Origin: a candidate division WOR-1 bacterium RIFOXYB2_FULL_36_35 | Lineage (GTDB): Bacteria > Margulisbacteria > WOR-1 > XYC2-FULL-46-14 > XYC2-FULL-37-10 | DNA length: 64,000 nt | Direction: 5' to 3' | Assembly: GCA_001771505.1 (NCBI GenBank) | Contig: MEUA01000005.1 | Coordinates: 10,808-74,807, forward strand | Shown: piece by piece, positions 12,183 through 35,122 of the stretch | How the letters are laid out: each line of letters opens with the position of its first letter | How positions within the stretch are numbered: the first letter of the stretch is position 1 | Notes under the pieces: generated by a model | Seen by the model: the letters and a program-made list of their open reading frames with translations, nothing else | Told to the model about the DNA's origin: nothing | Database searches by the model: none | Position numbers and translations under genes: made by a program

Positions 12183-12191
12183 ATGTTTTAT

Positions 12192-13570: not shown

Positions 13571-15051
13571 TCAATAATTCCTTTAACAGATAAACGTCCA
13601 TAATAATTCTTCATGAAGGTATTCATGGCTATTAATTTCAAAGGATTTTTAATTAATTTCAGTAAAAATCCTTTGAATAGTAAAAAGAACAGTTTAACCC
13701 ATAGAAACACTTTAAACATTCGTTTAAACTTATTTGACTCTAATTTTATTAAAGTATTAAAATTTAATGAATAGAAAAATAAAGATAACTTAGATAAATT
13801 TGGATGTTTTATTACAATATTTTCATAATAATTCGTATTTGGCTCCGCAATAATTAGTTTTTTGTCTTGATACCATTCAAATATTGGCGTTTTTTTAAAC
13901 GGCATAAAAATTGTACAAGCAGCAGAATCAACCTTTGCTTTGATATTTAAATCAATTCCTTCCCAAATAGTTTTTTCTGTATCCCCTGGCAAGCCAATCA
14001 TATTAAATGAATTAGTTCGAATATTATATTTTTTTAATATATGAAAAGCTTTTATAATTTGATCGTTTTTCATTTTACGATTCAGATATTTTTCTCTTAT
14101 ATACTCATTGCCAGATTCAATCCCTAAAGTAATGCTTTCACAACCAGAATTTGTTAATTCTTTAGCAATATCATCATTTATCGCTTCAACTCTTGTTTGA
14201 CATTCGAATGGAAGATTTACCTTGCTCTTATATAATTCTAAAAGTTTAAAAAGATTGTTTTTATTCATTGTAAAGGTTTCATCTGAAAAAATCACTTTTT
14301 TCAATTCAAACTTTGCCTTTACCTCTATAATCTCATCAATAACATTTCCCGGGCTTCTGAACCGCAGATATCCTTTATTTTGATTAAGCATAGCAGCATT
14401 ACAATAAAAACAATTATAAGGGCACCCTCTTCCAGTTATAAAATTAGCAGAATCCAAGACACCTTCTCTATAATAATATTTTAAAGGTTCTCTATCAGGA
14501 AAAGGATATTCATCTAAAGATAAAAAGACTTGTTCTTTCTTACTATTAATAATTTTGCCTTTTAACTTATAAGTTATATTTAGAGAATTTTCTTGAGTTA
14601 ATTTATTATTTAATATTAATTCAAGATACTGAGGCAACGAAAATTCTCCTTCACCAAGACAGACAGCATCAACATAATCCAACTTAATTATATTCTCCCC
14701 TTCTATCATAGAATGAATTCCGCCAAAGATTATGTGAGTTGTATTAAAGTTGGTTTTAATGTATTCTGCCCATGACTTAGATAAATTATAATTCGTACTT
14801 AATACCGAAAAGGTTACTACTTCTGGCCGAATTTGCTTCATAATATAATCTAGTTGATGCTGTATAAAATCATATTTTATCGGAAAGTGCATTATCAAAG
14901 ACAAATCAGGGAAAAAAACAACGCTATCAAATCCAGCTTTTTTGAGGGCTGATGAAATATACAAAGGCCCCAAACTAACCTCTCCACTACCTATTGATAT
15001 AGGAACAATGTTTAGTATTCTAGGCTTATTTGTTTTTTTGTAACTTTCCAT
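13567..15051 (-). CDS. B12-binding-domain radical SAM enzyme (class B radical SAM, probable methyltransferase/modifying enzyme)
   Basis: CxxxCxxC present as GRGCPYNCFYCNAAM. The N-terminal region matches the cobalamin-binding domain layout of this family. Confidence 0.65.
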   Translation of the reverse strand: MESYKKTNKPRILNIVPISIGSGEVSLGPLYISSALKKAGFDSVVFFPDLSLIMHFPIKYDFIQHQLDYIMKQIRPEVVTFSVLSTNYNLSKSWAEYIKTNFNTTHIIFGGIHSMIEGENIIKLDYVDAVCLGEGEFSLPQYLELILNNKLTQENSLNITYKLKGKIINSKKEQVFLSLDEYPFPDREPLKYYYREGVLDSANFITGRGCPYNCFYCNAAMLNQNKGYLRFRSPGNVIDEIIEVKAKFELKKVIFSDETFTMNKNNLFKLLELYKSKVNLPFECQTRVEAINDDIAKELTNSGCESITLGIESGNEYIREKYLNRKMKNDQIIKAFHILKKYNIRTNSFNMIGLPGDTEKTIWEGIDLNIKAKVDSAACTIFMPFKKTPIFEWYQDKKLIIAEPNTNYYENIVIKHPNLSKLSLFFYSLNFNTLIKLESNKFKRMFKVFLWVKLFFLLFKGFLLKLIKNPLKLIAMNTFMKNYYGRLSVKGIIE

Positions 15052-19032: not shown

Positions 19033-20865
19033 TTAAGTATAAAAAGGCAATAAAGTTTGTTCTGTTAATGGCGAAAAAAAACTCTCCATCAACTGTCGTC
19101 CCCGAATTTTTATTTGATCAAGCTGCTTGTTAGTAAGCGTCAAAATCTTTTTTATTTCTCTTCCAATGTCTTCTGACGTTCGAGCTACAAACTGAGTTTC
19201 ATCCATTGAGATCCAATCCATAGGATCAAGAGTTAAATCAATATCGCTTCGCACTCTAATTACAGGCAATCCATAAGCGATAGCATCTAAAATTGTAGCT
19301 GAGGCTGTTGCAATCAACAACTTAGATTGTGCCATAAGATCATTAATATTTCCTTCTGTAATCTCAAATTTAAAAAAAGAATCAAACGTAACATTTAAAA
19401 TATCTTGCAATTCTTTCCTAGGCATCATTGGATGAGGCTTTATCAAGACTTTTAAATCCGAAATACTTTTTAATATTTTATAAGATTTTGATAATAATTC
19501 AAGAGCTGTAGATCGTAATAATGGAAGAGTTATCAAAATATAGAATTTCTCAATAGAATTACTAATATTTGCCTTTAATAAATATTGATAGCGCAAAGCT
19601 GGCCCCTCTGCCAAAACATTTGAAGGATATCCTTCTTTCAAAAGAATCTCTTTGAAAAACTTTCCTGAACAAATTACTTTATCCGGCAATGGTAGAACTT
19701 TCAGTTCATTAAATGAGGTATAGCAAGACAATAAAAGAGGAGGAATAGATGTATGTTGAAATCCAAGTAGCTTTGTTTTGGAATAATATTTTAATTTACC
19801 CATTATCAAGGGCTTCTCAGATATCATATTCTCAAAAGGTATAATGATTTTTTTTATTATAATTCCATTTTTTCTTAATTTCTCAACAAGAAAATAGTGC
19901 ATTATAAGACTTGACAAAGACCCTTCAAAAAAATCTCTTTTAAATGCTTGACGAAATATTAGCTTGAGGTTCCAGTCGTTGAATACAAAATCTTTTTTAA
20001 ACAAATGCCTTGATTTTAATATAATAAAAATAGTTTTTAAATAATCCGCTAAAGAATAAAAATCTTCAGGGATAATAAATTGAGCCTTTGCTTTTCTAAA
20101 CCACAAGATTGCTTCTTTATATGAACGTTTTATATTGTAAATTATTGGAATAATAGCAACAGTTTCTCCTTTTCTTTTTAAGTTTTCATGGAGGTCAACA
20201 AAATAAGAATCTTTAAATAGGCCCTCATCTCCCAAATTTCTTTCTCCTACCCAAGTTCTCAAAATTGTCAATGGTATATTTTTATTAATATGTTTTACAC
20301 CATAAATACGTGAATATATAACATATATTTTCTCTATAAAACTTCTTTTTGCAAAGCGGATTAAACTTATACAAGATTTCAAATAAAAACTCATCAATGC
20401 TTCTTTTTTATAGAATTTTGACACAGTATATTCTTTAAATAACTCAGATTCATAAATTGTCTCCAACAATTCAGGACTTTCAGAGAAAATACAAATGTTT
20501 TTATTTCTAATTTCATTTCCTTTTAATTGCTTAATAATATCCAAATAACAAACATACAGAAAAACGGGACTATCCATAACATTTTTTTCTGCTATTTTAG
20601 ATACCCACCAGTAAAAAGAAGAAAATCGACAGCTCAAATTGCCAATGAAATCAATATATTGTCTACGAAGTTTATATGATGTTGCGTATAAAAAGTCCCC
20701 TATGTCAATATAATGAAAATTTGAAGGCAAAGTTTTTTTTAGCTTTAATAATTTCTCATAGTCTCTACCCAAAAAAAAACAGTAAAAATCTCTATCCATA
20801 TCTTCTTTAGGAAAAGAAGCCTCCTCAGAAATTAATATTAACTTTTTTTTCTTTGAATTAGACAT
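19033..20865 (-). CDS. large (610 aa) GT-B-like transferase of uncertain specificity (capsule/teichoic-acid-type or CMP-sugar-dependent transferase)
   Basis: The C-terminal half, KVLIKPHPMM...LLIATASATILDAIAYGLPVIRV, matches the donor-binding half of GT-B enzymes. It lies directly upstream of a cytidylyltransferase. It is a paralog of the N-terminal region of the 32615-35122 ORF. Confidence 0.35.
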   Translation of the reverse strand: MSNSKKKKLILISEEASFPKEDMDRDFYCFFLGRDYEKLLKLKKTLPSNFHYIDIGDFLYATSYKLRRQYIDFIGNLSCRFSSFYWWVSKIAEKNVMDSPVFLYVCYLDIIKQLKGNEIRNKNICIFSESPELLETIYESELFKEYTVSKFYKKEALMSFYLKSCISLIRFAKRSFIEKIYVIYSRIYGVKHINKNIPLTILRTWVGERNLGDEGLFKDSYFVDLHENLKRKGETVAIIPIIYNIKRSYKEAILWFRKAKAQFIIPEDFYSLADYLKTIFIILKSRHLFKKDFVFNDWNLKLIFRQAFKRDFFEGSLSSLIMHYFLVEKLRKNGIIIKKIIIPFENMISEKPLIMGKLKYYSKTKLLGFQHTSIPPLLLSCYTSFNELKVLPLPDKVICSGKFFKEILLKEGYPSNVLAEGPALRYQYLLKANISNSIEKFYILITLPLLRSTALELLSKSYKILKSISDLKVLIKPHPMMPRKELQDILNVTFDSFFKFEITEGNINDLMAQSKLLIATASATILDAIAYGLPVIRVRSDIDLTLDPMDWISMDETQFVARTSEDIGREIKKILTLTNKQLDQIKIRGRQLMESFFSPLTEQTLLPFYT

Positions 20866-21595
20866 ACAGATTTTTTATTTTGTCTTTTTTCATAACATCT
20901 CTTACAATTGCCAGGTCTTCTGGTGTATCAACACTGATTTTTGCATCTTTAATTACAACTGCCCTTATTTTAATCCCGTGTTCCAAAATTCTTAAGTATT
21001 CATTATACTCTATAACTTCAAGAGGAGTTGGATCCCAAGAAGAATACTGCAACAAAAATTCTTTCCTAAATGGAACAATAAAACACATTTTCAACATTTC
21101 TCTTACATTTGTCCTGGCATTGCTTGGCAAATCTGCCCTAGAACAGTATAAAATATTTCCTTCCAAATCCAGTACTGCCTTTATATCAGAAGAACTTTCT
21201 TTTTTTGCATAAGATGTAACTCCTACTGAAATGTTAAGAGAAGAGTCTTCTATTAGTGGAGTAATAACCAAATCGATATGATCAGGGCTAACCAAAGGCT
21301 CATCACCCTGAACGTTAACAACAATATCACATTCTATTTGTTGACAAGCCTCGGCAAGACGATCAGATCCTGTTTTATGATGTTTTCCTGTCATGATAAC
21401 TTTAACACCATATTTCTCTCCTGCAACCTTTATCTCGTCACTATCTGTCACCAAATAAACTTCAGAAAGAAGTTTTGACCTTTGAGCTCGTTTGCAAGTA
21501 TGTATCACCATGGGAATTCCTTCTATGTCTATTAAAGCCTTCCTTGGCAACCTGCTTGATTCAAGCCTTGCCGGAACCATACCTACAATTTTCAT
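20858..21595 (-). CDS. KdsB/NeuA-family CMP-ulosonate cytidylyltransferase
   Basis: MKIVGMVPARLESSRLPRKAL, the signature N-terminal motif of the CMP-Kdo / CMP-NeuAc synthetase family. Confidence 0.75.
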   Translation of the reverse strand: MKIVGMVPARLESSRLPRKALIDIEGIPMVIHTCKRAQRSKLLSEVYLVTDSDEIKVAGEKYGVKVIMTGKHHKTGSDRLAEACQQIECDIVVNVQGDEPLVSPDHIDLVITPLIEDSSLNISVGVTSYAKKESSSDIKAVLDLEGNILYCSRADLPSNARTNVREMLKMCFIVPFRKEFLLQYSSWDPTPLEVIEYNEYLRILEHGIKIRAVVIKDAKISVDTPEDLAIVRDVMKKDKIKNLYV

Positions 21596-21602
21596 TTATC
21601 TC

Positions 21603-22373
21603 TTACACTCCCTTAAAATCTTGAATTATTTTTTTAAAAATCCTAAAAAGCTCGGTTACTTCCAAAGAATAAGTTATAAACTGTATTCCAATTTCCTTAA
21701 ACCATTTAAGCTGTTCTTGATTGTCAGTAAAAGCTCCAACAGAAATTCCTTTCTCTCTCACCTTAGCAACAGCTCTTAAAACGGCATCTTTTACTTTTGG
21801 GTGAGTTATTTGTCCTGGCAAACCAATTGATTGGGAAATATCACAAAGCCCTAAGTAAATAACATCAATATCTTTATCCTCAATAATAGAATCAAGGTTT
21901 TCTAGTCCATTTTTACCTTCTACAATAAAAATACTCATAGTCTCTTCATTGGCTTTTTTAGTATGAAGAGTAAGATCAGAGGGTGAATAACCTGCAGAAC
22001 GAGTGAAAGGAGAAAAGCCACGATTTCCTATGGGAAAATATTTAATAGACTGTAATGCCTTTTCTTTATCTGCCCTGTTTTCAATATGTGGAACCACAAC
22101 TCCATACGCCCCAATGTCTAAAGCTCGCAGTATATCTGATTCATCGTTTTTTGGGACACGAATAAAAGGTGTACAGCCCTCAACTTCAGATGCTCGAATC
22201 ATACCCTCTGCAGTTTCAAAACTAATAGGCCCATGTTCCATATCTATTATTACAAAATCCAAGCCCGAAGCTCCCAAAACATTAACAGAAGATTCTGAAG
22301 GTAAAATACACCAAGTACCTAAAAGAATTTCTCCTTTTTTTAATTTTTCCTTAATAATATTCTTTCTTATCAT
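21603..22373 (-). CDS. HpcH/HpaI-family class II (pyruvate-specific) aldolase
   Basis: A TIM-barrel pattern, EHGPISFETAEGMIRA ... PFIRVP ... VEGKNGLENLD, typical of 2-keto-3-deoxy-acid aldolases. Confidence 0.7.
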   Translation of the reverse strand: MIRKNIIKEKLKKGEILLGTWCILPSESSVNVLGASGLDFVIIDMEHGPISFETAEGMIRASEVEGCTPFIRVPKNDESDILRALDIGAYGVVVPHIENRADKEKALQSIKYFPIGNRGFSPFTRSAGYSPSDLTLHTKKANEETMSIFIVEGKNGLENLDSIIEDKDIDVIYLGLCDISQSIGLPGQITHPKVKDAVLRAVAKVREKGISVGAFTDNQEQLKWFKEIGIQFITYSLEVTELFRIFKKIIQDFKGV

Positions 22374-22388
22374 ATATTTATTTTCTCC

Positions 22389-23144
22389 TTAAAAAACTTC
22401 TATTTTAGAAACATCATCAATTAAGAATTTAGTTAAAGCGCCTAACTGTTCTTTTGGAGTTATCCCAGAAGAAACAGCAATAGATGCTTTTACTTTTGCA
22501 TTATCACCCATTTTTATATCTGTTATGGCATCCCCGATCATCACACTTTCTTCTTTTTTAATATTCAATTTCTTTGTAATATAATCAATCATGTCTGAAG
22601 CAGGCTTAGGATTGTCAACTGCATCACAACCAATAATACAGGCAAATTTATCAGTTAATTTTAAGTAATCCATAGACAACTCAGCCCTTGATGTTTTATC
22701 TGTAGTTGCAATGGCTAGTTTGCAAGATTTTGAATGTAAAGAATCAATTAAACTCAACATTCCATTTATTGGTTTTATCAAACCATCCAACTTGTTTTCT
22801 GTTTGAACATCAATATCTTTAAAACAATCCAAACAAACTTCATAAGCTTTTTTATACCCTTTTGCCTCTAAATAATCAACAGCCGCCTGCATAACTATTT
22901 CTCTCTTTTTGATCCCAACGGGTCCTTCTGGACGAAGACAATTATTTTCTTGGTCAACCCCCATCTCAAAAACAATCCGGTTTGTATCATCTTTTGATAA
23001 AAAAAACTTTTCTGATATAAGATAAGCCCGCATCTTTATCATTTGAGACCAATAATGATACAAATCAATTAATGTACCATCCCTGTCAAAAATGACTAAA
23101 TTAATATTATTAATAATTTCGTTATTAACTTTTAAATTAACCAC
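22389..23144 (-). CDS. HAD-superfamily hydrolase (phosphatase)
   Basis: Motif I VIFDRDGTLID (DxD), plus later K and DD motifs. Confidence 0.65.
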   Translation of the reverse strand: MVNLKVNNEIINNINLVIFDRDGTLIDLYHYWSQMIKMRAYLISEKFFLSKDDTNRIVFEMGVDQENNCLRPEGPVGIKKREIVMQAAVDYLEAKGYKKAYEVCLDCFKDIDVQTENKLDGLIKPINGMLSLIDSLHSKSCKLAIATTDKTSRAELSMDYLKLTDKFACIIGCDAVDNPKPASDMIDYITKKLNIKKEESVMIGDAITDIKMGDNAKVKASIAVSSGITPKEQLGALTKFLIDDVSKIEVF

Positions 23145-24141
23145 TAATTGCCTCCAAATTTTGATCGACTAATTTTTTTGCAATCACAAGCCCTTTTTTT
23201 AAAATCCTCAAATCACTGTCAAAATCTTTATGATTTATAAATTCAGCAACCAGTTTACGGGCATAAGTCCCAATGGAAACCCCATTAACTTTAACCCCAC
23301 AAAGATGACAAAGTTCACCTGTTCTACTATTAGTACCACCTGAAGCCAAAATAATAACCGGCAATTTACTTTTTCTTACAATATCAGAAATTGCAACTGC
23401 CTGAAGAGTAGTATTGTAATCATCGCTTCCCCCACTCATTGGAACGCCATCTGCTTGAATAATCATTCTATCAGGAGCAAAAGCCAAAGCATCCTTTATT
23501 CTCTTCAAAAGATGTATATCAGACAATTGTGAACGATCTAAACACATACTAATATAATTATTTTTTAAATACTTATTCACCAATTTCCAATCCTGCATGA
23601 CAGAATCATCATCGGAAATAATTGCATGCAATTCAAATGTTTCCACTCCATTTACTAAACAAGCAGGGAGTATTTTATCTAATTCTCTCCTTTTATCAAA
23701 AAACTGAACTGCGCTTGAAGGGCAAATTTTTGAACATTCACCACAACCGATACAACGTTTTTCTATTATTTGATGCTCATTACTAATTGCATTTTGAACA
23801 CACACAGACAAACAAGCCCCGCAATGGAGACACTTGGCCTGGGCAACATTCGCTTTCCTAATATGAGGATCACCACGCATACCAATGCTAACATTAATAA
23901 ATGGTCTTGTTCTAAGCTCTATTCCAAGTTTTGGCGCAATCTCGTAGGCTTGATTAACTCCAAGGACAGAACTTTTTACTACATCAAGATTTGCTGAAAT
24001 ATCAATACCAAGTGCGCCAGCTAAAGTATAAAGAAGAGACAACTTTCGAACCTCTTCTGCATCTTCATTTCCAGCTCCACACACAATTTTAAAGTATTGA
24101 CTCTTCTCAAAAATCGATTTTAACTCTTCAAATCTATTCAT
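23137..24141 (-). CDS. 4Fe-4S dicluster (ferredoxin-type) domain protein with an additional uncharacterised domain
   Basis: Two CxxCxxCxxxCP motifs, CLHCGACLSVC and CIGCGECSKICP. The flanking ~250 aa are unrecognised. Confidence 0.6.
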   Translation of the reverse strand: MNRFEELKSIFEKSQYFKIVCGAGNEDAEEVRKLSLLYTLAGALGIDISANLDVVKSSVLGVNQAYEIAPKLGIELRTRPFINVSIGMRGDPHIRKANVAQAKCLHCGACLSVCVQNAISNEHQIIEKRCIGCGECSKICPSSAVQFFDKRRELDKILPACLVNGVETFELHAIISDDDSVMQDWKLVNKYLKNNYISMCLDRSQLSDIHLLKRIKDALAFAPDRMIIQADGVPMSGGSDDYNTTLQAVAISDIVRKSKLPVIILASGGTNSRTGELCHLCGVKVNGVSIGTYARKLVAEFINHKDFDSDLRILKKGLVIAKKLVDQNLEAISG

Positions 24142-25853
24142 AAGTAATTATTTATCCCTTTGTAAAACTTCCTATAATTTGTAGGAGTAATAATGTGAAT
24201 CCCTTCCCCTCCCTTACCACACAGATATTCCTCAATTTCCTCCAAATGCTTTAAATTTCCAAAATGTTTATCCAAAATCACATCTCTATCCCCAGTTTCA
24301 TCATTTTCTTTATAAAAATGAACATCCCCATCAGCAGTAGCGCGCATATAACCATCAAGTCCTGCGACAAAAATACGTTTTGCTCCAAAAACCCATGATA
24401 AAGCAATTAAGAAGATAGAAACAGTTCTGCAATTTGAACTAATTAATCCATCTTTGATATCAAAGGCAACATCATCTAGATCATTATAATAAATAAGTTC
24501 ATACTCGCGTCTTACATAATCATCAATCATCTCCTTTGGAATATGTTGACCAATTAAAAGCTTAGATTTGAGAGAAACAGTATCCACATAGTCAACAAAC
24601 CGACGCTTATTGGTAAATAAGTGATAATCAGGAACAAAAAGCCCTCCTAAGTAATTAGCCCCTAAAACTATTGGTTTGTACTTTTCAATAAAAAGAGAAA
24701 TTAAGTCTTTATACTTTTTTAAACTTGGTCCATTTGCCAAAACCAAAAAATCTGACCCATTATGTCTATTAACATAAGAAATTTTGTCACTGTTTTCGTT
24801 TATCCCTTTTTGTTCATTTTCAGCAGGTTTTAAAGCCTTTTTCTTGCCAAATAGTCCATCACGAATAATTTGATCAACAATGTCTTTTTTAAAGCCTATT
24901 GGTTTCTTGGCTTTTATGACTTCAAAAATATTCCAGATATCTTCAATGTCATACTCTTTTCGCTCAACCAAATTTTTAGCATAGTTTGGATGACATTCAT
25001 TAATACCTGAAAGCATATAGGGTAAATTATATCCCCAAAAGTTTTTTTCTTTTAGTTCAACAAAAAATCGATCAATCAAATTTAATACTGGGATTACGTT
25101 ATACTTGCCTGGCATCATTTGATGAAAATAGGAAAGTAAAATTTCTGTTGGTAAATTACCAGCACCACGCCCCATACCAAAAACAGAAGAATCAACAATA
25201 TCTACTCCAGCATCAATTGCAGCAAAAGTATTAGCAAAAGACATTAGTAAATTATTATGTGGATGAAATCCTAATTTAAAGTTTCTATCCTTTAACAAAG
25301 GGGTAAACAACTCTTTTATTTCATGAGGAAACATGGACCCATAGCTATCAGCTATATATACGTAATCTATCCCCTCTTGATTAATTAAAAAAACTAATTC
25401 ATTTAACTCGTCAGTAGAATAACTAATGTATCCCATCAAATTTACAGACACTAAAAAGCCAAGTCTTTTTATTTGTCCCGCAATATTAACTGCTTCCTTT
25501 GCTTTATCTTTATGAAAGGCCAACCTAATTAATGAAACATTGGTACCAAGATATTGGTTTAAATCATTTAAATCAAACTTACCATAATCAACCATTAAAG
25601 CAATTTTTGCCCCATTTATTCCTCCTGTAACACTTTTTATATCTTCAAAAGAAGTAAAACGAAATCTCCCAAACTTTTTAGGATCAAAAAAATGTTCTAC
25701 TCCATGATAGCCCAATTCTATATAATCAATACCAGCTTTTGAGAGTGCTCGATAGGTTTCACGTACTAATTTGAGATCAAAATCCCAATTGTTAACATAT
25801 CCCCCATCACGAATGGTACAATCAAGAATTTCTATTTTATTCTTATCCTTCAC
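24138..25853 (-). CDS. fusion protein: N-terminal HMGL-like (DRE-TIM metallolyase / pyruvate carboxyltransferase) aldolase domain + C-terminal CstII/Maf (DUF115)-like sialyltransferase-like domain
   Basis: N-terminal ILDCTIRDGGY ... FHPHNN (DRE-TIM family). C-terminal VLANGPSLKKY ... VAGLDGY resembles the GNGPSL and SGIDFY regions of GT42 sialyltransferases and Maf proteins. Confidence 0.45.
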   Translation of the reverse strand: MKDKNKIEILDCTIRDGGYVNNWDFDLKLVRETYRALSKAGIDYIELGYHGVEHFFDPKKFGRFRFTSFEDIKSVTGGINGAKIALMVDYGKFDLNDLNQYLGTNVSLIRLAFHKDKAKEAVNIAGQIKRLGFLVSVNLMGYISYSTDELNELVFLINQEGIDYVYIADSYGSMFPHEIKELFTPLLKDRNFKLGFHPHNNLLMSFANTFAAIDAGVDIVDSSVFGMGRGAGNLPTEILLSYFHQMMPGKYNVIPVLNLIDRFFVELKEKNFWGYNLPYMLSGINECHPNYAKNLVERKEYDIEDIWNIFEVIKAKKPIGFKKDIVDQIIRDGLFGKKKALKPAENEQKGINENSDKISYVNRHNGSDFLVLANGPSLKKYKDLISLFIEKYKPIVLGANYLGGLFVPDYHLFTNKRRFVDYVDTVSLKSKLLIGQHIPKEMIDDYVRREYELIYYNDLDDVAFDIKDGLISSNCRTVSIFLIALSWVFGAKRIFVAGLDGYMRATADGDVHFYKENDETGDRDVILDKHFGNLKHLEEIEEYLCGKGGEGIHIITPTNYRKFYKGINNYL

Positions 25854-27681
25854 AGGCTACCTCTTTTCGAACAAACTGGTTCGACAAACTACTTCTTTCT
25901 TTATTATATATTGCCCAATAAAACCCTTTCATTGAAAGAAGCTCTTCATGTTTTCCCTCCTCAACAACCTCTCCCTTTTCAAGCACAATAATTTTGTCAG
26001 AATCAATCACTGTAGAAAGCCGATGAGCTATAACAATAACAGTTCTATTTCTAGAAATATTATTTATTGCTTTTTGAACTATTGCTTCTGAAATGTTGTC
26101 TAAAGAACTTGTAGCTTCATCTAAAATAAGTATTTCAGGTTTATGAACCAAAGCTCTAGCAATTGCAATACGCTGCCTCTGCCCTCCAGATAATTTCATT
26201 CCCCTATCTCCAACAACAGTTTCATATCCGTCAGCAAGAGATGCTACAAAGTCATGAACATTCGCATCTTTTGCAGCTTGAATAATCTCATTCATATCAA
26301 CATTTAGACCAAAAGCAATATTCTCTGCAAGTGACGCATTAAATATAAAGGTATCTTGAGTAACAAATCCTATTTTTGAAAGCCAGGAACTTATTTTACA
26401 ATCTTTAATATCTATGCCATCAATTAAAATTCTGCCATAATTAACATCAAAAAGCCTTATAATTAAATCTGCAATCGTAGACTTGCCCGCGCCAGAATGA
26501 CCAACAATAGCAGTCATTTTCCCCTTTTCAAAAGAAAGCTTCAATCCCTTCAACACTCCTTTACGCCCAGGATAAGAAAAACTTACATCCTCAAATTTTA
26601 TCTCTTTCTTAAATTCTTTTATCTCCTCGGGCCCATCCTTAATTTGCTTAATATTCTTATTTAAAAGTGAGTAAAGAATTTCTACAATAGGCAAAGTTCC
26701 CATAATTTGAATTCTCAAATTCCCAAGTTGTGAAAGAGAAGGCATTATTTTTTGAAAAGCATACGCAAATGTCCCAAGTATTGGCAAAATAACTGCAAAA
26801 TCAGCAGAATATAAAACTTTGGCTAAAATCAGCAATAACGATAAAAGCACGATAGTCATCGTATCCAATAAATACCCTGGTATAAGTGAGAACTCCCTAT
26901 CTTTTTTTGCCAATTTAAAATAGTCCTGCATAGCTGCAAAAAAGTTCTTTATCCAACGATTTTCAGAAGAAAACACTTTTATTTGTCTTATCCCGCTTAT
27001 TGTTTCACCAAGTAAAACATTTTGTTTCTCACAAGCCACCACTCGCCCCTTCCCCATGTTGTAAGAAATATTACTTGCTATATACTTAGTTAAATAATAA
27101 TATAAAACACCGACCAAAATTATCGCGCCTGATGCATAAGGTGAAATCCCGATCAAAATAAACCCAACTGCCAATAATTTAGCAAACTCTGAAAGAGCTT
27201 GAGGTAAATAAGTAAGAATACTGCCAAGGGACGATGGCGCAGAATAAACCCGATATATAATTTCTCCTTGTTTATGATCAAGGAAATACTGATAATCTGC
27301 AGAAATACATTTTACAAATACTTTTTCTTGAATGTCCTGCCAAACTTTAAAGCCAGCAACAGAACTAACAATGCTCTGTAAATATCCAAACCCATTCTTA
27401 AAAATTACTGAAAAAATAAGCAATAGACAAGAGCTAATAAGTTTGTCTTTTATAGGAAAAAAATTTAAAATAAAAGTTATTATCTTGGCAATTCCTCCTG
27501 CATCAGCATTAATTCCAACCGCAGAATTTAATATTGAGAATAATATCAATACATTGATACCATCAAAAAAAGAACTCGCAAAAGTTAATATAGTAATTCC
27601 AAAAATATAATGCGGATACGGCTTTAAAAAATACCAACATATTTTCAAGCGAGGATTATTTATAAAATTTAAGAATTTCAT
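25843..27681 (-). CDS. ABC exporter, fused TMD-NBD (MsbA/PglK-like lipid-linked glycan or lipid flippase type)
   Basis: Six predicted N-terminal TM helices. Walker A GHSGAGKST, signature LSGGQRQRIAIARAL, Walker B ILILDEATSSLD. Confidence 0.85.
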   Translation of the reverse strand: MKFLNFINNPRLKICWYFLKPYPHYIFGITILTFASSFFDGINVLILFSILNSAVGINADAGGIAKIITFILNFFPIKDKLISSCLLLIFSVIFKNGFGYLQSIVSSVAGFKVWQDIQEKVFVKCISADYQYFLDHKQGEIIYRVYSAPSSLGSILTYLPQALSEFAKLLAVGFILIGISPYASGAIILVGVLYYYLTKYIASNISYNMGKGRVVACEKQNVLLGETISGIRQIKVFSSENRWIKNFFAAMQDYFKLAKKDREFSLIPGYLLDTMTIVLLSLLLILAKVLYSADFAVILPILGTFAYAFQKIMPSLSQLGNLRIQIMGTLPIVEILYSLLNKNIKQIKDGPEEIKEFKKEIKFEDVSFSYPGRKGVLKGLKLSFEKGKMTAIVGHSGAGKSTIADLIIRLFDVNYGRILIDGIDIKDCKISSWLSKIGFVTQDTFIFNASLAENIAFGLNVDMNEIIQAAKDANVHDFVASLADGYETVVGDRGMKLSGGQRQRIAIARALVHKPEILILDEATSSLDNISEAIVQKAINNISRNRTVIVIAHRLSTVIDSDKIIVLEKGEVVEEGKHEELLSMKGFYWAIYNKERSSLSNQFVRKEVACEG

Positions 27682-28763: not shown

Positions 28764-29813
28764 TTACTCAATTACAAGATCCCAAGTTATCGGGGTTCCT
28801 TTCTTTGTATTTTTAGAAATTTTTTTACCCAATAAATCATTTATATGTTTTGGAGAAATTCCGCCAGCAGGTCTAATAGATTTTAAATTATCTAAAGTGA
28901 ATAGATCTCCTGCTTTCATATCATTTACAACATAAAGTGAACGCCTAAATCTCATTGTTTTTTTCTCTTCGGCAGTAGGGATATAATTAACCGTCCCCAA
29001 TGCTTGCCATGCACGTTCAGACTCAATCACTAAATCATGCATCTCTTGTGGCTCCATTGAAAAGGCTGAATCAATTCCTCCATCAACTCGTGATAACGTA
29101 AAGTGCTTCTCAATAACTGTTGCACCTAAAGCAACACTAGCAACAGAAACACCTAGGCCTAAAGTGTGATCAGATATTCCAACAGAACAATTAAATCTAG
29201 CCATCATGTCTGGAATTGTTAATAAATTAGAGCTAGATGGAATTGCAGGATAAGAACTTGTACATTTAAGAAGAACAATCTTGTCATTCCCTTCATTTTT
29301 ACAAGCATCAATAGCTTCTTGAATTTCTTCTATTGTTGCCATCCCTGTAGACATAATTATAGGCTTTCCTGTTGAAGCTATTTTTTTAATTAATGGAATA
29401 TCAACAATTTCAAAAGAAGCTATTTTATAACAAGGAACATTTAAAGATTCCAAAAAGTTAACTGCAGGTTCATCAAACGGAGTGCTAAACCCAATAATTC
29501 CTAATTCTTTACATTTATCAAAAATAGGCTTATGCCATTCCCATGGGGTATAAGCTTCTTTGTATAAATCGTAAAGTTTTTTTCCCTTCCACAGACTATT
29601 AGAGTCATTAATAATAAACCCTTCCGCATTTGAATCAAGTGTCATTAAATCTAACGAAAATGTTTGAAGTTTAAGCGCATCTACTTTACACTTTGCGGCT
29701 GCTTCAACAATATGCAAAGCTCTTTCAATCGACTGATTGTGATTGCCAGACATTTCAGCAATAATGAAAGGTTTAATTTTTTCCCCAATCTTTATATTAA
29801 TACGTTCTTTCAT
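28764..29813 (-). CDS. NeuB-family nonulosonic acid synthase (PseI/LegI/NeuB-like, PEP-dependent), copy 1
   Basis: PFIIAEMSGNHNQSIERALHIVEAAAKCKVDALKLQTF (NeuB N-terminal TIM-barrel motif) and a C-terminal SAF/antifreeze-like domain. Confidence 0.8.
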   Translation of the reverse strand: MKERINIKIGEKIKPFIIAEMSGNHNQSIERALHIVEAAAKCKVDALKLQTFSLDLMTLDSNAEGFIINDSNSLWKGKKLYDLYKEAYTPWEWHKPIFDKCKELGIIGFSTPFDEPAVNFLESLNVPCYKIASFEIVDIPLIKKIASTGKPIIMSTGMATIEEIQEAIDACKNEGNDKIVLLKCTSSYPAIPSSSNLLTIPDMMARFNCSVGISDHTLGLGVSVASVALGATVIEKHFTLSRVDGGIDSAFSMEPQEMHDLVIESERAWQALGTVNYIPTAEEKKTMRFRRSLYVVNDMKAGDLFTLDNLKSIRPAGGISPKHINDLLGKKISKNTKKGTPITWDLVIE

Positions 29814-30520
29814 AGATTAATGCTCCTCACTAGCTCAAAGGCTTCTGCATATGCCAAGCCAACTTCACACCCACGTTTTTCAGCAAGGATTTCAATCCCT
29901 TTAATTGATCTAGGATGTGGCCATTCTTTCAATTCATTTTTATAGGCTTTCATAGCGTCTATTTTTTTCTCAATAGTTTTAGAAATATCCACATAAACAT
30001 TTGGCTTAAATGTATTAGGCCAGCTCCACTCAGTTGAAGATAATGTTTCAAAACAGTATATTTGCTTCACCATTTCTCCTGCAATTGCTCTACAAGCGGT
30101 CAAAACAGCATTAAAGGTTATCTGATGATCTATATTCAAATCCTCCCCGTGATGAGTAAAAATGACATCGGGGATAAACTTGTTTTTTACATTTTCTATA
30201 ACTTTTACTAAATCTAAAAGTGGAACGGAATCAAAACGATTATCAGGAAAATTTAAAACAAAATTCTTTTTAACTTTTAATATCTTTGCCGCATCATTAA
30301 TATGATTTTTTAACTCTTTCATTTGTTCAATATCCATGGCCTTTTCTCTGTTTTCATATCTCGAAGTAATTCCTTCTCCTAAAATTAATATGGCAACGTC
30401 TATTCCTTTTTTCAGTAATTTTGAAATTGTTCCCCCACAACCTAAAACCTCATCATCAGGGTGTGCAGCTACAACTAAAACATTCTTCATATTAGAAAAC
30501 ATCATTATCCCCCAATTCAA
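29810..30520 (-). CDS. PIG-L/LmbE-family N-acetylglucosaminyl deacetylase-like protein
   Basis: VLVVAAHPDDEVLGCGG ... HQITF (a Zn-dependent PIG-L motif). Confidence 0.75.
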   Translation of the reverse strand: MNWGIMMFSNMKNVLVVAAHPDDEVLGCGGTISKLLKKGIDVAILILGEGITSRYENREKAMDIEQMKELKNHINDAAKILKVKKNFVLNFPDNRFDSVPLLDLVKVIENVKNKFIPDVIFTHHGEDLNIDHQITFNAVLTACRAIAGEMVKQIYCFETLSSTEWSWPNTFKPNVYVDISKTIEKKIDAMKAYKNELKEWPHPRSIKGIEILAEKRGCEVGLAYAEAFELVRSINL

Positions 30521-31343
30521 ATTTATAATTATTTACATTTTCTAGTAATTGCATATTTGTGTATAGAATAAATTCATTAAACAATATAGGAGAAAATCCC
30601 TTTGACCGGAGTTTTTCATTATTTTCTGAGTTTTTGAATGCCCATACATCAACAACACCATTAAATCCTTCCAATAAATTACAATCTGACAACTCAAGAA
30701 TCTGCTTTTTATTATTATATTCTTTCCAAATAATATAATTATATTCATCAATAATACTTTGATAATAAATTGTTTGAGGCTTAGAGTATCTCCATTTAAT
30801 AAAATCCAAATTCTTTTGTATCTTAAAATAAATATCTTTTTTAGATTCAATATATTTAAACTGATTAATATCTAATTTTTCATATCCTTCACCTGAAACA
30901 AAGCCACTTAATAATTCTAAGCCTCCATAGCTTTTCCACCCTATCCTCTTATGCCCTTTTACAGCTTTAGAATTAGGAACACCAATAACTAAAGGGAACT
31001 TAGAATCATTAAGAGAAAATTCTCCCATAGCTTGGAACAAACCTGTCCCTTGAAATCGAGGAATAACTCCCACGTTATTACATAAGGCGCCTTTTATAAT
31101 TACTCCATCAACTTTTATCAAAATAGGAAGCAATCCATACATAGCAACAGGTTCATCATTTTTGAAAGCTGCATACCATAAATTCGCCCCTATCGGACAG
31201 GAAGAGAACCAATCAATCAAATCTTTTTTAAATTCTCTGTTAAAAATCAACTTAAACAGAAGCAATATGTCTGAGCTTTTATTTAATTTTCCAAATTTCA
31301 TTTTTGATTTATCAAATAAAATAGGGTATTTGTTTTGATTCAT
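30492..31343 (-). CDS. putative acyl-CoA N-acyltransferase (GNAT-like) protein, 283 aa
   Basis: VGVIPRFQGTGLFQAMG resembles GNAT motif A. Otherwise unrecognised. Confidence 0.3.
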   Translation of the reverse strand: MNQNKYPILFDKSKMKFGKLNKSSDILLLFKLIFNREFKKDLIDWFSSCPIGANLWYAAFKNDEPVAMYGLLPILIKVDGVIIKGALCNNVGVIPRFQGTGLFQAMGEFSLNDSKFPLVIGVPNSKAVKGHKRIGWKSYGGLELLSGFVSGEGYEKLDINQFKYIESKKDIYFKIQKNLDFIKWRYSKPQTIYYQSIIDEYNYIIWKEYNNKKQILELSDCNLLEGFNGVVDVWAFKNSENNEKLRSKGFSPILFNEFILYTNMQLLENVNNYKFELGDNDVF

Positions 31344-31858
31344 AAATTTATCTCTCTTGATTTACGCATAAACTTCTTACAATTCATTGCCATTTTAACA
31401 AATGCAACTATTTCTCCATGTTTTACATCAACACAATTAAATAATTCAAAGAAACCAGCATTTCTAAATGATTTAATAGAAGCTAAATTACTACTTTTTA
31501 TCCTTGCAATAAAAATATCCACATTATTTTCTTCTAAAAATATTTCACAAGACAATTCAATCATCTGTCTTGCATACCCATTTCCTCTCATTTTTGGGAC
31601 TACATTAATATCAAATTCAGCAACATGATTATTTAATTTATCAAGTCTAACTATTCCAATTTTATTTTTTTCCCCATCTTCTGCAATATAAATAAATCTA
31701 TTAGGATTTTTCAATGAATCATTAAACCAAATCTTATGATCTTCATAAGATATTATCCCTGAGCAAAAATTAGCGTTTCTTGTTTTTTCGTCGTTTCGCC
31801 AAGAAAAAACATCATTACAATCTTCATCTAATACAGTTCTTAAATAAATTTTATTCAT
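31340..31858 (-). CDS. GNAT-family N-acetyltransferase (PseH-like aminosugar N-acetyltransferase)
   Basis: 172 aa. IGIVRLDKLNNHVAEFDINVVPKMRGNGYARQMIEL (GNAT motif A). It lies inside the pse-like gene set. Confidence 0.6.
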   Translation of the reverse strand: MNKIYLRTVLDEDCNDVFSWRNDEKTRNANFCSGIISYEDHKIWFNDSLKNPNRFIYIAEDGEKNKIGIVRLDKLNNHVAEFDINVVPKMRGNGYARQMIELSCEIFLEENNVDIFIARIKSSNLASIKSFRNAGFFELFNCVDVKHGEIVAFVKMAMNCKKFMRKSREINL

Positions 31859-32618
31859 AAATATTCTTCAAATTTCTGATATCTCCTACAAAATCATTTA
31901 AATTCTTCATTGATGATTTCAATGTTTCTATTGTTAGCATAGATCCATTTTGTATAAAAGACAAAGTAAATTTCATATCGAAGCTCCCCTCTCCGATATG
32001 CAAATGTTTATCATAAATTCCTTGAATATCTCCATCTGTTAAATGGTACATTGTAGGTTTTAAAGAAATAAAATTTTTAATGTAGTGGGAGCTATCAATA
32101 TTATGCGCATTTGCAGAACAGATAGCATGGCCAATATCCAAACAAAATCCAATTTGAACCTCTTTGATTAAAAACTCGATTTCTTCAGGTGTGGTTCCAT
32201 TGCAGATTAATCCATTATCTAAAGCATAATAAGGCTTATTCTCTATTAATATCCTAGAATCATTAATATATTTCAATTGACTAGCCGTTTCTTTAATATT
32301 TCCATCAATTCCAGGATGGAATATTATCCAATGAGCATTTAATTTATCTGCAAAATGCTGAGCTTCATGAGCTAATTCCATGTTTTTATAAAACTTATTT
32401 TTTTCAGCTAAATTAAGCCCATCTCTAAAATGAGGAGCATGAATAATAAATGGTATATTTAATTCCTGCCAAACTTTTATATAATTTTCATAAGAATCAG
32501 GAATTACATAAAGTTCAATGTAATCATATGTGCTATTCTTATAAAGCTTTATTGCTTCTTCTATATAATTATTATTCGTCGACCATAGTTTCAAACCAAA
32601 CTTAAATTTCTTCATCAT
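31851..32618 (-). CDS. xylose-isomerase-like TIM-barrel protein (sugar phosphate isomerase/epimerase family)
   Basis: IELYV ... IIHAPH ... IIFHPG ... LIENKP ... CLDIGH, a metal-binding pattern of the AP-endonuclease-2/xylose-isomerase TIM barrel. Confidence 0.45.
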   Translation of the reverse strand: MMKKFKFGLKLWSTNNNYIEEAIKLYKNSTYDYIELYVIPDSYENYIKVWQELNIPFIIHAPHFRDGLNLAEKNKFYKNMELAHEAQHFADKLNAHWIIFHPGIDGNIKETASQLKYINDSRILIENKPYYALDNGLICNGTTPEEIEFLIKEVQIGFCLDIGHAICSANAHNIDSSHYIKNFISLKPTMYHLTDGDIQGIYDKHLHIGEGSFDMKFTLSFIQNGSMLTIETLKSSMKNLNDFVGDIRNLKNIYE

Positions 32619-35122
32619 ATTGCTAGTCCCTTCTGAACTATATGTGAATTTAACATGGTAAGATGATCATGTTGTTTTAAAAACCTCAACACATCATTTA
32701 GTGTAAAATAATTATTTACTGGATAAATCCCATCATATATTTCCCTAATCAACTCAAAATCCTCTTGTGTATCTAACGTAAGCCTATATTTTGAATCGTC
32801 TCCATTTCCTATAAATTGTTTTATCTTGAATTTTTCTTCATTCTGATAAATATATGGAGTAACATGCTCTCGCTGGCAGTTCTCTTTGGCAAAATTAAAA
32901 GCTTTTTTAAGAGAAGAAAAATTCATGATTTCAACATCAAGGCCTCTTGGAAAAGTACGCTTTATGGTATTAGATAAATAATCTACGGATGGATCCTTTA
33001 AAAAGGTTGCTACCATGCTATCAATTATATCCGCATCTACAAAAGGACAATCTGAAGTAATCCGAATTATCACATCAAGATTGTTTTCTTTTGCTGCATA
33101 ATAGTATCTCGAAAGAACGTCTTCCTCGCTTCCTCTAAAATATTTCAGATTATTTGATTTAGCCAGAGAAACGATAAGATCATCTCTTGCATCAATAGTA
33201 GTTGCAATGATTATTTCATGGACATTTTTACAGCCTTTTAATCTGTCAATAATATGTTCAAGAACAGGTTTATTTTGAACAGGAAGCATAATTTTACCCG
33301 GCAATCTAGTAGATCCCATTCTTGCCTGAATTATTATTCCAACTTTTCTCTGATTTATATAACCATTAATTAAAAATTCTTGCAATAACTCTATGGAACG
33401 ATCATCAGGACATTCATCGTATTCTCTTAATAAGTAATAAGGAATATCTTTTAAAGGAGATACTTCACCCAAAATAATCTTATGAGTCATTTCAATTAAC
33501 TTATCGGGATCATCAAACACTAGTTTATCTTTAAAGATTTTAGAAAAAGGATGATTATAGTGTACTTGATCAAAATAAAGTCCTTCGACACCAGAAATAA
33601 TGGCAATTGTGGAAGAACTGGTCATACCCTGTGTAACAACAATATCTGAAATGCCTATTACCTTTACATAAGACCAGTCCTTTGGATTTAAGATATAAAC
33701 ATTATTGAGATTATTTAGCTGTGCTATTATTTTATCAAGTTTCTCTCTACAACCATCAGAAAAGCTATGGGTTTGAATTGGAACCTTAGGTTTTAACAAA
33801 ATTGTAAGATCATTATTCAATAAAGCCATTTTTAATGCTATTTCATAAAAAATGACAAAATGATCTTCTGTCATTTTGCATTCTATCCCAAATGACTCAT
33901 CAAAAAAACTAACTACTTTTCTTGATACGTCAATCCCTGCATCTGCAAGTATTTTATGCCTAAAAGCCCTTGATTCTTTAATATATCTTTTATTGAAAAA
34001 TCCTATAGGCAACAACATCTCCTCAGGGCCTTCAACGCCCTTTACATGCGCTTTTCCCCATAAAAAATATTTATCACATCCTAAGAAAGAAAGAACTGAT
34101 TTATTCAAATCAACAGATAAATCAGACCAGTGAAACAAATAATACTTAGATCCGTAATTCTGGCAAACAATAGACTCTGCAATATGACTAAAACTATAAA
34201 AAGAATATCCGAGTTCAGAAGTAATTTTATAATTAGAAAATATTTTTTCATATTGTAAAGCAGAAGCTTTGAAATGATAAAAAACACTGTAAAACAACGT
34301 ATAGTAGTTAGAATTTATTAAATTAATTAAAATTCTAACGCCAGAAAACACATATTTGGGCAAAACCCTAAAAATAAATTGTTTTAACCCCATTGGCAAC
34401 GAATTAAACACAAAATGTTCATAATCAGAGTTTATAGCATCATTATATCCGACCAACCTACATCCCTCCAAATAAATACCTCTTGAATAAAGCAATAAAT
34501 CTTCTTTTTTTATATTTTTATCATCTACAAAAAAATCATCTCCACAACAATGATCTATTCCTGTGTGCAAACCACTAACAGCTTCAGTCATAACCTTAAA
34601 TTTTTTAACTTTCAAAAAAAGTTTTATTCCGCGAAACAAACTAACACAAAATACAGAATAAACAATTATTAACAAATTAAGAAGTTTTATTACTGTTGAT
34701 GGTTGATTTTTCCATTTAATTGGCGGTATCGTTTTAAATTTAATTAAGTATTTCTCTGCTGCAAAACGATTTAGAGGATTATCTTCTAAGACTATAACAT
34801 TATTAATATTATTTTTATATGACATTTCATCTAAACACCTAAGAGCAATAGATAAATATTCAACTATCCATTTTTTCAGCAATGGATTAAAACGGTCAGT
34901 ATCAAATAATTTATTCATTGATTTTGTAAAATATGAATCTAATAAGGCATTTTTTTCAACAAACTCATTTGTCAATTCTACTAGATCTGAATAAATCCAA
35001 TTTAAATATTCAATTCTTCGTTTCCCATTAAAACTTCCCAACAAATTTACTTCTGCAAGCAAATCAATTTGAATGGCTTTCCTTATATTTCTAATTTTTC
35101 CTCTTATAGTTTCAAGCATCAA
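32615..35122 (-). CDS. bifunctional fusion: N-terminal ~600-aa GT-B-like domain + C-terminal CMP-nonulosonate cytidylyltransferase (PseF/NeuA-like)
   Basis: C-terminal VGIIIQARMGSTRLPGKIMLPV (cytidylyltransferase). Upstream of it, LLKPKVP...ISDIVVTQGMTSSSTIAIISGVEGLYFDQ (the GT-B donor half). Immediately downstream of the PseB/PseC homologs. Confidence 0.55.
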   Translation of the reverse strand: MMLETIRGKIRNIRKAIQIDLLAEVNLLGSFNGKRRIEYLNWIYSDLVELTNEFVEKNALLDSYFTKSMNKLFDTDRFNPLLKKWIVEYLSIALRCLDEMSYKNNINNVIVLEDNPLNRFAAEKYLIKFKTIPPIKWKNQPSTVIKLLNLLIIVYSVFCVSLFRGIKLFLKVKKFKVMTEAVSGLHTGIDHCCGDDFFVDDKNIKKEDLLLYSRGIYLEGCRLVGYNDAINSDYEHFVFNSLPMGLKQFIFRVLPKYVFSGVRILINLINSNYYTLFYSVFYHFKASALQYEKIFSNYKITSELGYSFYSFSHIAESIVCQNYGSKYYLFHWSDLSVDLNKSVLSFLGCDKYFLWGKAHVKGVEGPEEMLLPIGFFNKRYIKESRAFRHKILADAGIDVSRKVVSFFDESFGIECKMTEDHFVIFYEIALKMALLNNDLTILLKPKVPIQTHSFSDGCREKLDKIIAQLNNLNNVYILNPKDWSYVKVIGISDIVVTQGMTSSSTIAIISGVEGLYFDQVHYNHPFSKIFKDKLVFDDPDKLIEMTHKIILGEVSPLKDIPYYLLREYDECPDDRSIELLQEFLINGYINQRKVGIIIQARMGSTRLPGKIMLPVQNKPVLEHIIDRLKGCKNVHEIIIATTIDARDDLIVSLAKSNNLKYFRGSEEDVLSRYYYAAKENNLDVIIRITSDCPFVDADIIDSMVATFLKDPSVDYLSNTIKRTFPRGLDVEIMNFSSLKKAFNFAKENCQREHVTPYIYQNEEKFKIKQFIGNGDDSKYRLTLDTQEDFELIREIYDGIYPVNNYFTLNDVLRFLKQHDHLTMLNSHIVQKGLAI

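Follow-up and report, generated by a model that had tools for sequence, protein, structure and literature searches.

An iron-sulfur TIM-barrel protein of the LdpA superfamily in a conserved gene cassette that appears to make an activated surface sugar acid

What is a protein with two ferredoxin motifs doing among genes of nucleotide-sugar synthesis? The question is raised by a 334-residue reading frame in a 64,000-nucleotide stretch of contig MEUA01000005.1 (positions 10,808 to 74,807) of the candidate division WOR-1 bacterium RIFOXYB2_FULL_36_35, a member of the Margulisbacteria; this whole stretch is called the window below. The original prediction, made from the sequence alone, described a ferredoxin-type dicluster protein with about 250 residues that could not be placed, and proposed either a redox step on a sugar acid or electron supply to neighbouring radical chemistry. 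Its coordinates (23137-24141) and protein length proved exact. The gene lies on the minus strand, as do all of its neighbours, which are as first described. According to our structural model, the product is not a simple ferredoxin but a single enzyme-like protein with a triosephosphate isomerase (TIM) barrel, into which a dicluster module is inserted, and it belongs to the superfamily of the clock protein LdpA. Translational coupling ties the gene into a cassette of six that is conserved across bacterial and archaeal phyla. The protein and its parts are encoded as follows.

23137..24141, minus strand: LdpA-superfamily Fe-S TIM-barrel protein, 334 residues (LdpA_C, LdpA_Fe-S-bd and NCBIfam LdpA matches, AlphaFold2 model)
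23854..24141, minus strand: N-terminal part of the barrel, residues 1-96, strands β1-β3, with conserved K18, D47, S85, D91, H93 and K96
23692..23853, minus strand: 2x[4Fe-4S] ferredoxin insert, residues 97-150 (translations, Fer4 family matches, position in the AlphaFold2 model)
23137..23691, minus strand: C-terminal part of the barrel, residues 151-334, with α3, β4-β8 and the C-terminal helix

Judged by its homologues, the gene is real and strongly constrained: a set of 5.8 billion proteins contains 1519 of them, the best 120 all with E<1e-121, and an identical protein is on deposit as hypothetical protein A2230_08285 of the WOR-1 bacterium RIFOXYA2_FULL_36_21. The first ferredoxin motif, CLHCGACLSVC-V, occupies residues 104-115 (nucleotides 23800-23832) with the spacing C104-x2-C107-x2-C110-x3-C114, the next residue being V rather than P. 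The second, CIGCGECSKICP, occupies residues 130-141 (nucleotides 23719-23754) with the spacing C130-x2-C133-x2-C136-x3-C140-P. The two classical CxxCxxCxxxCP motifs that had been reported are thus both present as far as their four cysteines are concerned, whereas the full CP ending is found in the second motif only. Three Pfam ferredoxin models score above their cutoffs, namely Fer4_7 (37.6 versus 27), Fer4 (33.4 versus 21.1) and Fer4_9 (34.5 versus 27). Both the motifs and the profile cutoffs of a bacterial-type 2x[4Fe-4S] ferredoxin domain are therefore passed, cluster binding is predicted, and on this evidence the two-motif signature is not a product of chance. A stand-alone ferredoxin, typically of about 55-110 residues, was considered and rejected, as the protein has 334 residues and the module (residues ~97-150) sits inside a TIM barrel. 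A second reading frame of 334 residues in the window, at 51223-52227, bears no relation to it.

The rest of the protein is covered by models of the LdpA family. Pfam LdpA_C matches residues 164-322 (E 6e-14, 52.5 versus a cutoff of 22.2), LdpA_Fe-S-bd scores 33.6 versus 27.6, and the NCBIfam LdpA model (NF045992) aligns residues 7-305 with its positions 6-325 of 360 (E 8.8e-47), its score of 159.9 bits standing against an equivalog cutoff of 450. A weak N-terminal match to DUF561 (residues 6-57) falls below the gathering score. Pfam scans with barrel-only sequences at E values up to 10 returned nothing except LdpA_C and the weak DUF561 match; the flavin-barrel families DHO_dh, Oxidored_FMN, FMN_dh and NMO gave no match in these scans. 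Searches of the PDB by sequence, with the protein as well as with the family profile, gave matches confined to the ferredoxin segment. An hhalign comparison of the family profile with the HisF-like and HpcH barrels of the window gave a probability of 0.3, indicating no relation, and no informative fusion domain is present in the longer members of the family. By sequence, the protein appears to have no solved structure and no characterised enzyme family near it, LdpA and DUF561 being the only related sequence families. Among the relatives, P0125 reaches 8.4e-8 against the C-terminal half of the DUF561 (Ycf23, PF04481) model, above the cutoff. DUF561 proteins are uncharacterised and, to our knowledge, have no ferredoxin insert.

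An AlphaFold2 model built with an alignment of 124 sequences has a mean predicted local distance difference test (pLDDT) score of 96.7 and a predicted TM-score of 0.94; single-sequence input gave a pLDDT of 38. The modelled strands β1 (16-20), β2 (45-49), β3 (81-86), β4 (168-172), β5 (197-201), β6 (226-231), β7 (263-267) and β8 (287-290) alternate with helices, and the approximately 280 non-ferredoxin residues are accordingly predicted to fold into a single (βα)8 TIM barrel that belongs to the LdpA/DUF561 superfamily. The ferredoxin module is placed between β3 and the helix 154-163, i.e. in βα-loop 3. As this loop belongs to the catalytic face in TIM barrels, the module should lie over the catalytic face. 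A remote-homology search had been proposed for the unplaced regions, and its outcome is an LdpA_C/DUF561-type barrel, which is not a housekeeping family. The picture of a ferredoxin with some 250 unplaceable residues has to be replaced by that of one barrel carrying the dicluster module as an insertion.

A profile search of 1.84 billion cluster representatives yielded 180 representatives at E<1e-30, and the superfamily alignment comprises 124 full-length members, including the genuine cyanobacterial LdpA sequences P0207, P0254, P0262 and P0265. Among these 124 sequences, the eight ferredoxin cysteines are invariant or at least 90% conserved. The same is true of K18, D47, S85, D91, H93, E170, H172, Q229, D231 and G232, and of G268, G269, N271, G287, G291 and R295. 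In the modelled barrel, K18 (β1), D47 (β2), D91/H93/K96 (after β3), E170/H172 (β4) and Q229/D231 (β6) make up a polar, metal-type set, with E170, H172, S198, Q229 and D231 all borne by the C-terminal part, whereas S267-G-G-T-N271 and G287...G291 with R295 form phosphate-type loops after β7 and β8. The superfamily signature, comprising the barrel residues, GG-x-N, R295 and the eight cysteines, is complete in the WOR-1 protein. Four further cysteines, C21, C161, C200 and C281, are invariant in the 37-sequence cassette clade only and not in the wider family; C161 and C200 are substituted in genuine LdpA, and C161 is found at the end of the helix preceding β4, which by barrel topology points away from the catalytic face. 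These four residues may serve as a metal site, a disulfide or a third Fe-S cluster.

The neighbouring genes, listed here in the direction of transcription, place this protein in a biosynthetic context.

25843..27681, minus strand: HepA/MsbA-like ABC exporter; its gene and the start of the aldolase gene overlap
24138..25853, minus strand: DmpG-like class II aldolase with an MptE-like (DUF115) domain, 571 residues (Pfam HMGL-like 2.5e-27, residues 6-240)
22389..23144, minus strand: HAD-IA phosphatase, PpaX/phosphoglycolate-phosphatase-like (Pfam HAD_2 9.5e-27; NCBIfam)
21603..22373, minus strand: HpcH/HpaI-type class II pyruvate aldolase (Pfam 8.6e-27; PDB HpaI/GarL 1e-33 to 1e-28)
20858..21595, minus strand: KdsB-type synthetase of cytidine monophosphate (CMP)-ulosonic acid (Pfam CTP_transf_3 1.2e-41)
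19033..20865, minus strand: 610-residue putative transferase of no Pfam family (weak TIGR04326 'surface carbohydrate biosynthesis protein', weak GT1-like C-terminus)

The stop codon of the DmpG-like aldolase gene overlaps the ATG of the Fe-S barrel gene (ATGA). The stop of the Fe-S barrel gene in turn overlaps the GTG with which the HAD gene begins, and a GGAGG lies 6 nucleotides upstream of this GTG. The DmpG-like protein matches PDB entries 3dxi (1e-49) and DmpG 1nvm (1.5e-27), and its match to the NCBIfam 4-hydroxy-2-oxovalerate aldolase model is below the cutoff. Its C-terminal domain of about 260 residues matches the MptE-like family at 4.4e-4, also below the cutoff, and a PDB search with this domain gave no match. 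The best 25 NCBIfam matches of the HAD protein are PpaX, phosphoglycolate phosphatase and other HAD-IA models, and KdsC is absent from them. The HpcH/HpaI-type aldolase stays under the equivalog cutoffs of NCBIfam HpaI/GarL, and the KdsB-type enzyme passes PRK13368 (256.5 bits, cutoff 255) and TIGR00466 kdsB (160.1, cutoff 155.2). No match to the phosphoenolpyruvate (PEP)-dependent 3-deoxy-D-manno-octulosonate (Kdo)-8-P synthase KdsA was found among the six cassette genes, whose aldolases are of the HpcH_HpaI and HMGL-like families. For the 610-residue protein, no PDB relative was found by sequence. Taken together, the cassette appears to make an activated sugar acid for the cell surface.

How widely is this arrangement kept? 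One genome per species was scanned (185,579 species), of which 468 contain a relative of the Fe-S barrel protein. Neighbours were counted by tblastn of the window genes against the best 80 loci, using relatives of at least 49% identity with enough flank. The HAD phosphatase gene lies within 300 nucleotides downstream in 45 of 46 loci; the DmpG-like aldolase with the MptE-like domain is present in 34 of 36, the HpcH/HpaI-type aldolase and the KdsB-like gene in 26 of 28 each, and the putative transferase of about 600 residues in 18 of 21. The KdsB-like gene is 49-76% identical across cassette loci, and 66-76% identical between the window and methanogen or Desulfobacterota cassettes. The original prediction had proposed that the gene belongs with its sugar neighbours and would be refuted if it did not accompany them in any other genome; these counts and identities show that it accompanies them with great regularity. 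Look-ups of diverse homologues found the gene set in an Altiarchaeota metagenome-assembled genome (MAG), a Methanobacteriota MAG and another metagenome contig. In all, it is common to Altiarchaeota, Methanobacteriota, Margulisbacteria and about 45 other MAGs. The bacteria among the best 80 loci include Margulisbacteria, Omnitrophota, Syntrophales, Desulfobacterales, Nitrospiraceae, Planctomycetes including Scalindua, Chloroflexi, Elusimicrobia, Parcubacteria, Pelagibacteraceae and Prochlorococcus single cells; the archaea include Micrarchaeota, Hydrothermarchaeota and Methanomicrobia, among them the cultured Methanocalculus taiwanensis. An ABC exporter gene precedes the cassette in about 10 loci (e.g. 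L008, L011, L013, L027 and L038) and is thus frequent but not constant, and genes for deoxythymidine diphosphate sugars (RmlA, FdtA-like) flank it in about 17.

Variants of the cassette are informative about its product. In a more distant group (L074, L076, L084 and L087, e.g. L087:6001-11215), the order is LdpA-like gene, HAD, DmpG-like/MptE-like, in some cases HpcH, and a thiamine pyrophosphate (TPP)-dependent enzyme, which takes the place of the KdsB-like gene. 2-Oxo acids are substrates of KdsB-type and TPP enzymes alike. A 4-hydroxy-2-oxo acid (a 3-deoxy-ulosonic acid) would suit this as the aldolase product, to be either CMP-activated by the KdsB-like enzyme or decarboxylated in the TPP variant. 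In Prochlorococcus and other marine loci, ferredoxin-less paralogues of 279-289 residues with no Pfam match (L071:11038-11877, L093:6001-6870 and L095:2170-3024) are always found directly downstream of a ferredoxin-bearing copy, which suggests a tandem pair, perhaps a heteromer. A divergent HpcH/HpaI-family gene adjoins LdpA-like genes that have no cassette in Melainabacteria, rumen MAGs and one Prochlorococcus cell (L075:10990-11778, L077:9091-9897 and L080:10915-11640); hence, the link between the LdpA family and HpcH reaches beyond the cassette. Homologues from Sericytochromatia and some Melainabacteria stand in unrelated gene contexts. On one Melainabacteria contig (L088:6001-7799), the LdpA-like gene overlaps the start of RibF (flavin adenine dinucleotide synthetase/flavokinase) by 4 nucleotides, and FolE2 and RpiB are encoded close by. 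Having been seen only once, this arrangement may be due to chance.

Is the WOR-1 protein then an LdpA? LdpA (light-dependent period A) of Synechococcus elongatus PCC 7942 (NF045992, PF12617, PF25160), a clock protein that modulates the circadian period and the abundance of CikA, has the same colinear barrel and two-cluster insert, and the barrel residues and phosphate loops are conserved in it too. However, genuine LdpA representatives are only 25-31% identical to every non-clock clade, whereas the non-clock clades share about 32-63% with each other and 35-57% with two cassette exemplars, which puts the WOR-1 protein in a separate, larger branch. Orthology to LdpA was rejected on this identity, on the score (159.9 bits versus 450) and on the non-cyanobacterial host. 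The host is a non-photosynthetic Margulisbacterium, and the close relatives (at least 49% identity) are found in archaea and non-cyanobacterial bacteria; a 2017 survey reported LdpA only in Cyanobacteria (PMC5520375). The contexts differ as well: the protein studied here sits in a sugar-acid cassette, whereas the genuine ldpA gene examined has no sugar genes around it and stands beside a DHH-type phosphoesterase gene. In this cyanobacterial locus, a 308-residue DHH/DHHA1-like phosphoesterase (L090:472-1398) precedes ldpA (L090:1409-2395) by 10 nucleotides. Phosphoesterase partners therefore occur on both sides of the family, DHH/DHHA1-like before ldpA and HAD after the cassette homologues. According to a 2026 review, LdpA is a clock input and redox sensor whose mode of action is unknown (PMC13421787). 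The family itself is known to databases, NCBI labelling some members 'LdpA C-terminal domain-containing', and what is undescribed is its biosynthetic role, substrate and product; in the literature, we found no paper that places the LdpA family in a glycan context or ascribes a TIM barrel or an enzymatic role to it, and no description of this cassette. That LdpA keeps the polar residues and phosphate loops suggests, from the alignment, an enzymatic origin for the clock protein.

What, then, could the Fe-S barrel protein do? Its gene and that of the HAD phosphatase show the tightest coupling in every variant, which suggests that the barrel product is a phosphate ester, and two all-cysteine clusters over the barrel mouth fit the delivery of electrons to a phosphate-anchored carbonyl compound. 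Our preferred explanation, held with middling confidence, is that the protein is a ferredoxin-linked redox enzyme acting on a phosphorylated pathway intermediate; in any specific reaction we place far less trust. The cassette would then lead to a 3-deoxy-2-ulosonic acid in CMP-activated form without the use of KdsA. An unusual dephosphorylated carbonyl building block would be supplied jointly by the DmpG-like aldolase, which carries the MptE-like (kinase-like) domain, the Fe-S barrel and the HAD phosphatase, and the HpaI-type aldolase would couple this block to pyruvate; the KdsB-type enzyme would activate the aldolase product with CTP, and the protein of about 600 residues would transfer it. 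The barrel would hold the phosphorylated intermediate, putatively a keto-sugar or 2-oxo-acid phosphate, by its phosphate loops, and low-potential electrons from cellular ferredoxin or flavodoxin, relayed by the two clusters, would bring about a two-electron reduction. The likeliest chemistry would be either a reductive deoxygenation beside the carbonyl via a ketyl-type intermediate or a reduction of the carbonyl, and the HAD phosphatase would take the phosphate off after the barrel step. The redox step on a sugar acid that had been suggested originally is thus retained as the best, though inferred, reading, with a phosphorylated sugar or oxo-acid intermediate as the putative substrate.

The logic of such a pathway is that of the Kdo (KdsA, KdsC and KdsB), Neu5Ac-9-P and Kdn-9-P pathways, in which an aldol-type synthase, a phosphatase and CMP activation follow each other. 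However, the cassette has no PEP-dependent synthase of the KdsA or NeuB type and uses a pyruvate-dependent HpaI-type aldolase instead; its phosphatase is of the HAD-IA class (PpaX/phosphoglycolate-phosphatase-like) and not a KdsC, which is a capless HAD-IIIA; and it adds the DmpG-like/MptE-like fusion and the Fe-S barrel, and occurs in archaea too. The iron-sulfur TIM-barrel reductases IspG (GcpE), dihydropyrimidine dehydrogenase (DPD)/PreA and FadH (2,4-dienoyl-CoA reductase) have no sequence relationship to the protein. In IspG, three cysteines hold a single [4Fe-4S] cluster whose open iron site faces the barrel, whereas flavin is used by DPD/PreA and FadH. In contrast, both clusters of the Fe-S barrel protein are predicted to be all-cysteine, no flavin family was detected in it, and its module is inserted in loop 3, not appended. 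A reductive dehydroxylase of the IspG type was rejected, as there are two four-cysteine motifs and not one 3-Cys cluster.

Several observations weigh against the redox-enzyme explanation. The S. elongatus LdpA, as the sole family member with biochemical data, is described as a redox sensor and not as an enzyme (PMC13421787). No electron-accepting cofactor was identified in the barrel, which has no flavin-family Pfam match, and with both clusters all-cysteine neither has an open iron site. Three relatives (P0127, P0197 and P0233) have degenerate cysteine motifs while the barrel residues are kept. The order of steps rests on the order of genes only, the presence of two pyruvate aldolases in one cassette is unexplained by the scheme, and instead of a kinase, the MptE-like domain could be a CMP-sugar transferase of the Maf type.

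A protein of this kind could also catalyze a non-redox reaction, as an isomerase, epimerase, aldolase or lyase of a phosphorylated sugar or oxo-acid, its clusters being structural or a redox or O2 switch that gates the pathway, which would echo the sensor role of LdpA. This is the main rival to the redox reading and fairly unlikely in our estimate; several observations speak for it. The nearest folds found all appear to be non-redox phosphate-binding barrels, and the layout of K on β1, H on β4, an acid on β6 and phosphate loops is one that we take to resemble triosephosphate isomerase and the class II aldolases. The three relatives just mentioned lost cysteine ligands yet keep the barrel residues, the ferredoxin-less paralogues retain E170, H172, D231 and GGTN, and the clusters of LdpA have been described as redox-sensing (PMC13421787). 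On the other hand, all eight cysteines are conserved in more than 95% of the representatives, every ferredoxin-less copy has a cluster-bearing partner, and an insert directly over the catalytic face fits the delivery of electrons better than remote regulation.

The protein might instead be mainly a dedicated ferredoxin that reduces nearby B12-dependent radical S-adenosylmethionine (SAM) enzymes, which is how the original prediction had pictured electron supply to radical chemistry. About 26 of 49 cassette loci have genes for B12-binding radical SAM enzymes, which in many cases lie within the cassette: between the Fe-S barrel homologue and HAD in L001 and L010, and between HAD and HpcH in L022, L024, L028, L029, L036, L054 and L061. 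The window has one as well, at 13567-15051, downstream of the cassette, which at 8 kb is the nearest to the Fe-S barrel gene. In about half of the cassette loci, however, the flanks retrieved contain no radical SAM gene; among these are the closest relatives in Margulisbacteria (L006-L008) and also L011, L012 and L019, and lone homologues occur without a radical SAM partner. Furthermore, a role as electron donor would account neither for the 280-residue barrel, with its phosphate loops and invariant polar residues, nor for the near-universal coupling to the HAD phosphatase. The electron-supply proposal is therefore poorly supported, and we regard it as very unlikely. Equally, full-length homology to LdpA could point to a non-catalytic, redox-sensing regulator of the expression or stability of the glycan machinery, and the Margulisbacteria are the sister phylum of the Cyanobacteria. 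Such a role is highly improbable given a score of 160 versus 450 bits, 25-31% identity to genuine LdpA and a Pfam scan that shows no DNA-binding or signalling domain. Moreover, the gene is coupled between enzyme genes in archaea and in many phyla without a reported LdpA (PMC5520375).

If the redox-enzyme explanation is extended to the whole family, the LdpA family would be ancestrally one of ferredoxin-linked enzymes of phosphosugars or 2-oxo acids. The cassette would lead to an undescribed CMP-ulosonic acid by a KdsA-independent pyruvate-aldolase route, which would include a reduction without precedent, dependent on Fe-S clusters and carried out on a TIM barrel that has no cofactor, and the clock LdpA would sense or convert a phosphorylated metabolite, not only the redox state. 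We offer this extension tentatively and consider it possible rather than probable. After more than 20 years LdpA is still an orphan, and a much larger, deeply related branch of its family is built into a biosynthetic cassette in bacteria and archaea, across hundreds of species. The family thereby gains a testable biochemical context, namely a carbonyl substrate that is phosphorylated, ferredoxin as the source of electrons and a CMP-sugar as the read-out, and the cassette context predicts which LdpA residues to mutate. It also indicates that methanogens, candidate phyla and marine picoplankton share a surface sugar acid that is uncharacterised and whose synthesis does without the canonical PEP-dependent enzyme.

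The cassette is part of a large surface-glycan island that surrounds it in the window. The G+C content is uniform (0.27-0.34) across 10-40 kb, by which a recent transfer was rejected on base composition, and collections of plasmids and phages, searched by tblastn, contained no match. Downstream of the cassette, a WbuX-type N-acetyl-sugar amidotransferase and its HisH- and HisF-like partners are encoded at 11049-13570. On its other side are equivalogs of the pseudaminic-acid enzymes PseB (36289-37266), PseC (35119-36288) and PseI (28764-29813). The region 28764-37266 also encodes a xylose-isomerase-like barrel (31851-32618), two GNATs, a PIG-L deacetylase and, at 32615-35122, an 835-residue protein with a C-terminal CTP_transf_3 domain. 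A full-length LIC12162-family transferase of 589 residues (37297-39066, 526 bits) follows; the 610-residue cassette protein was considered as a relative of it and found to be unrelated. Another CTP_transf_3 gene, the third, is found at 42089-42859 with GFO/IDH/MocA and DegT neighbours. Together with the KdsB-type gene of the cassette, these two further CTP_transf_3 genes mean that the island encodes three CMP-sugar synthetases.

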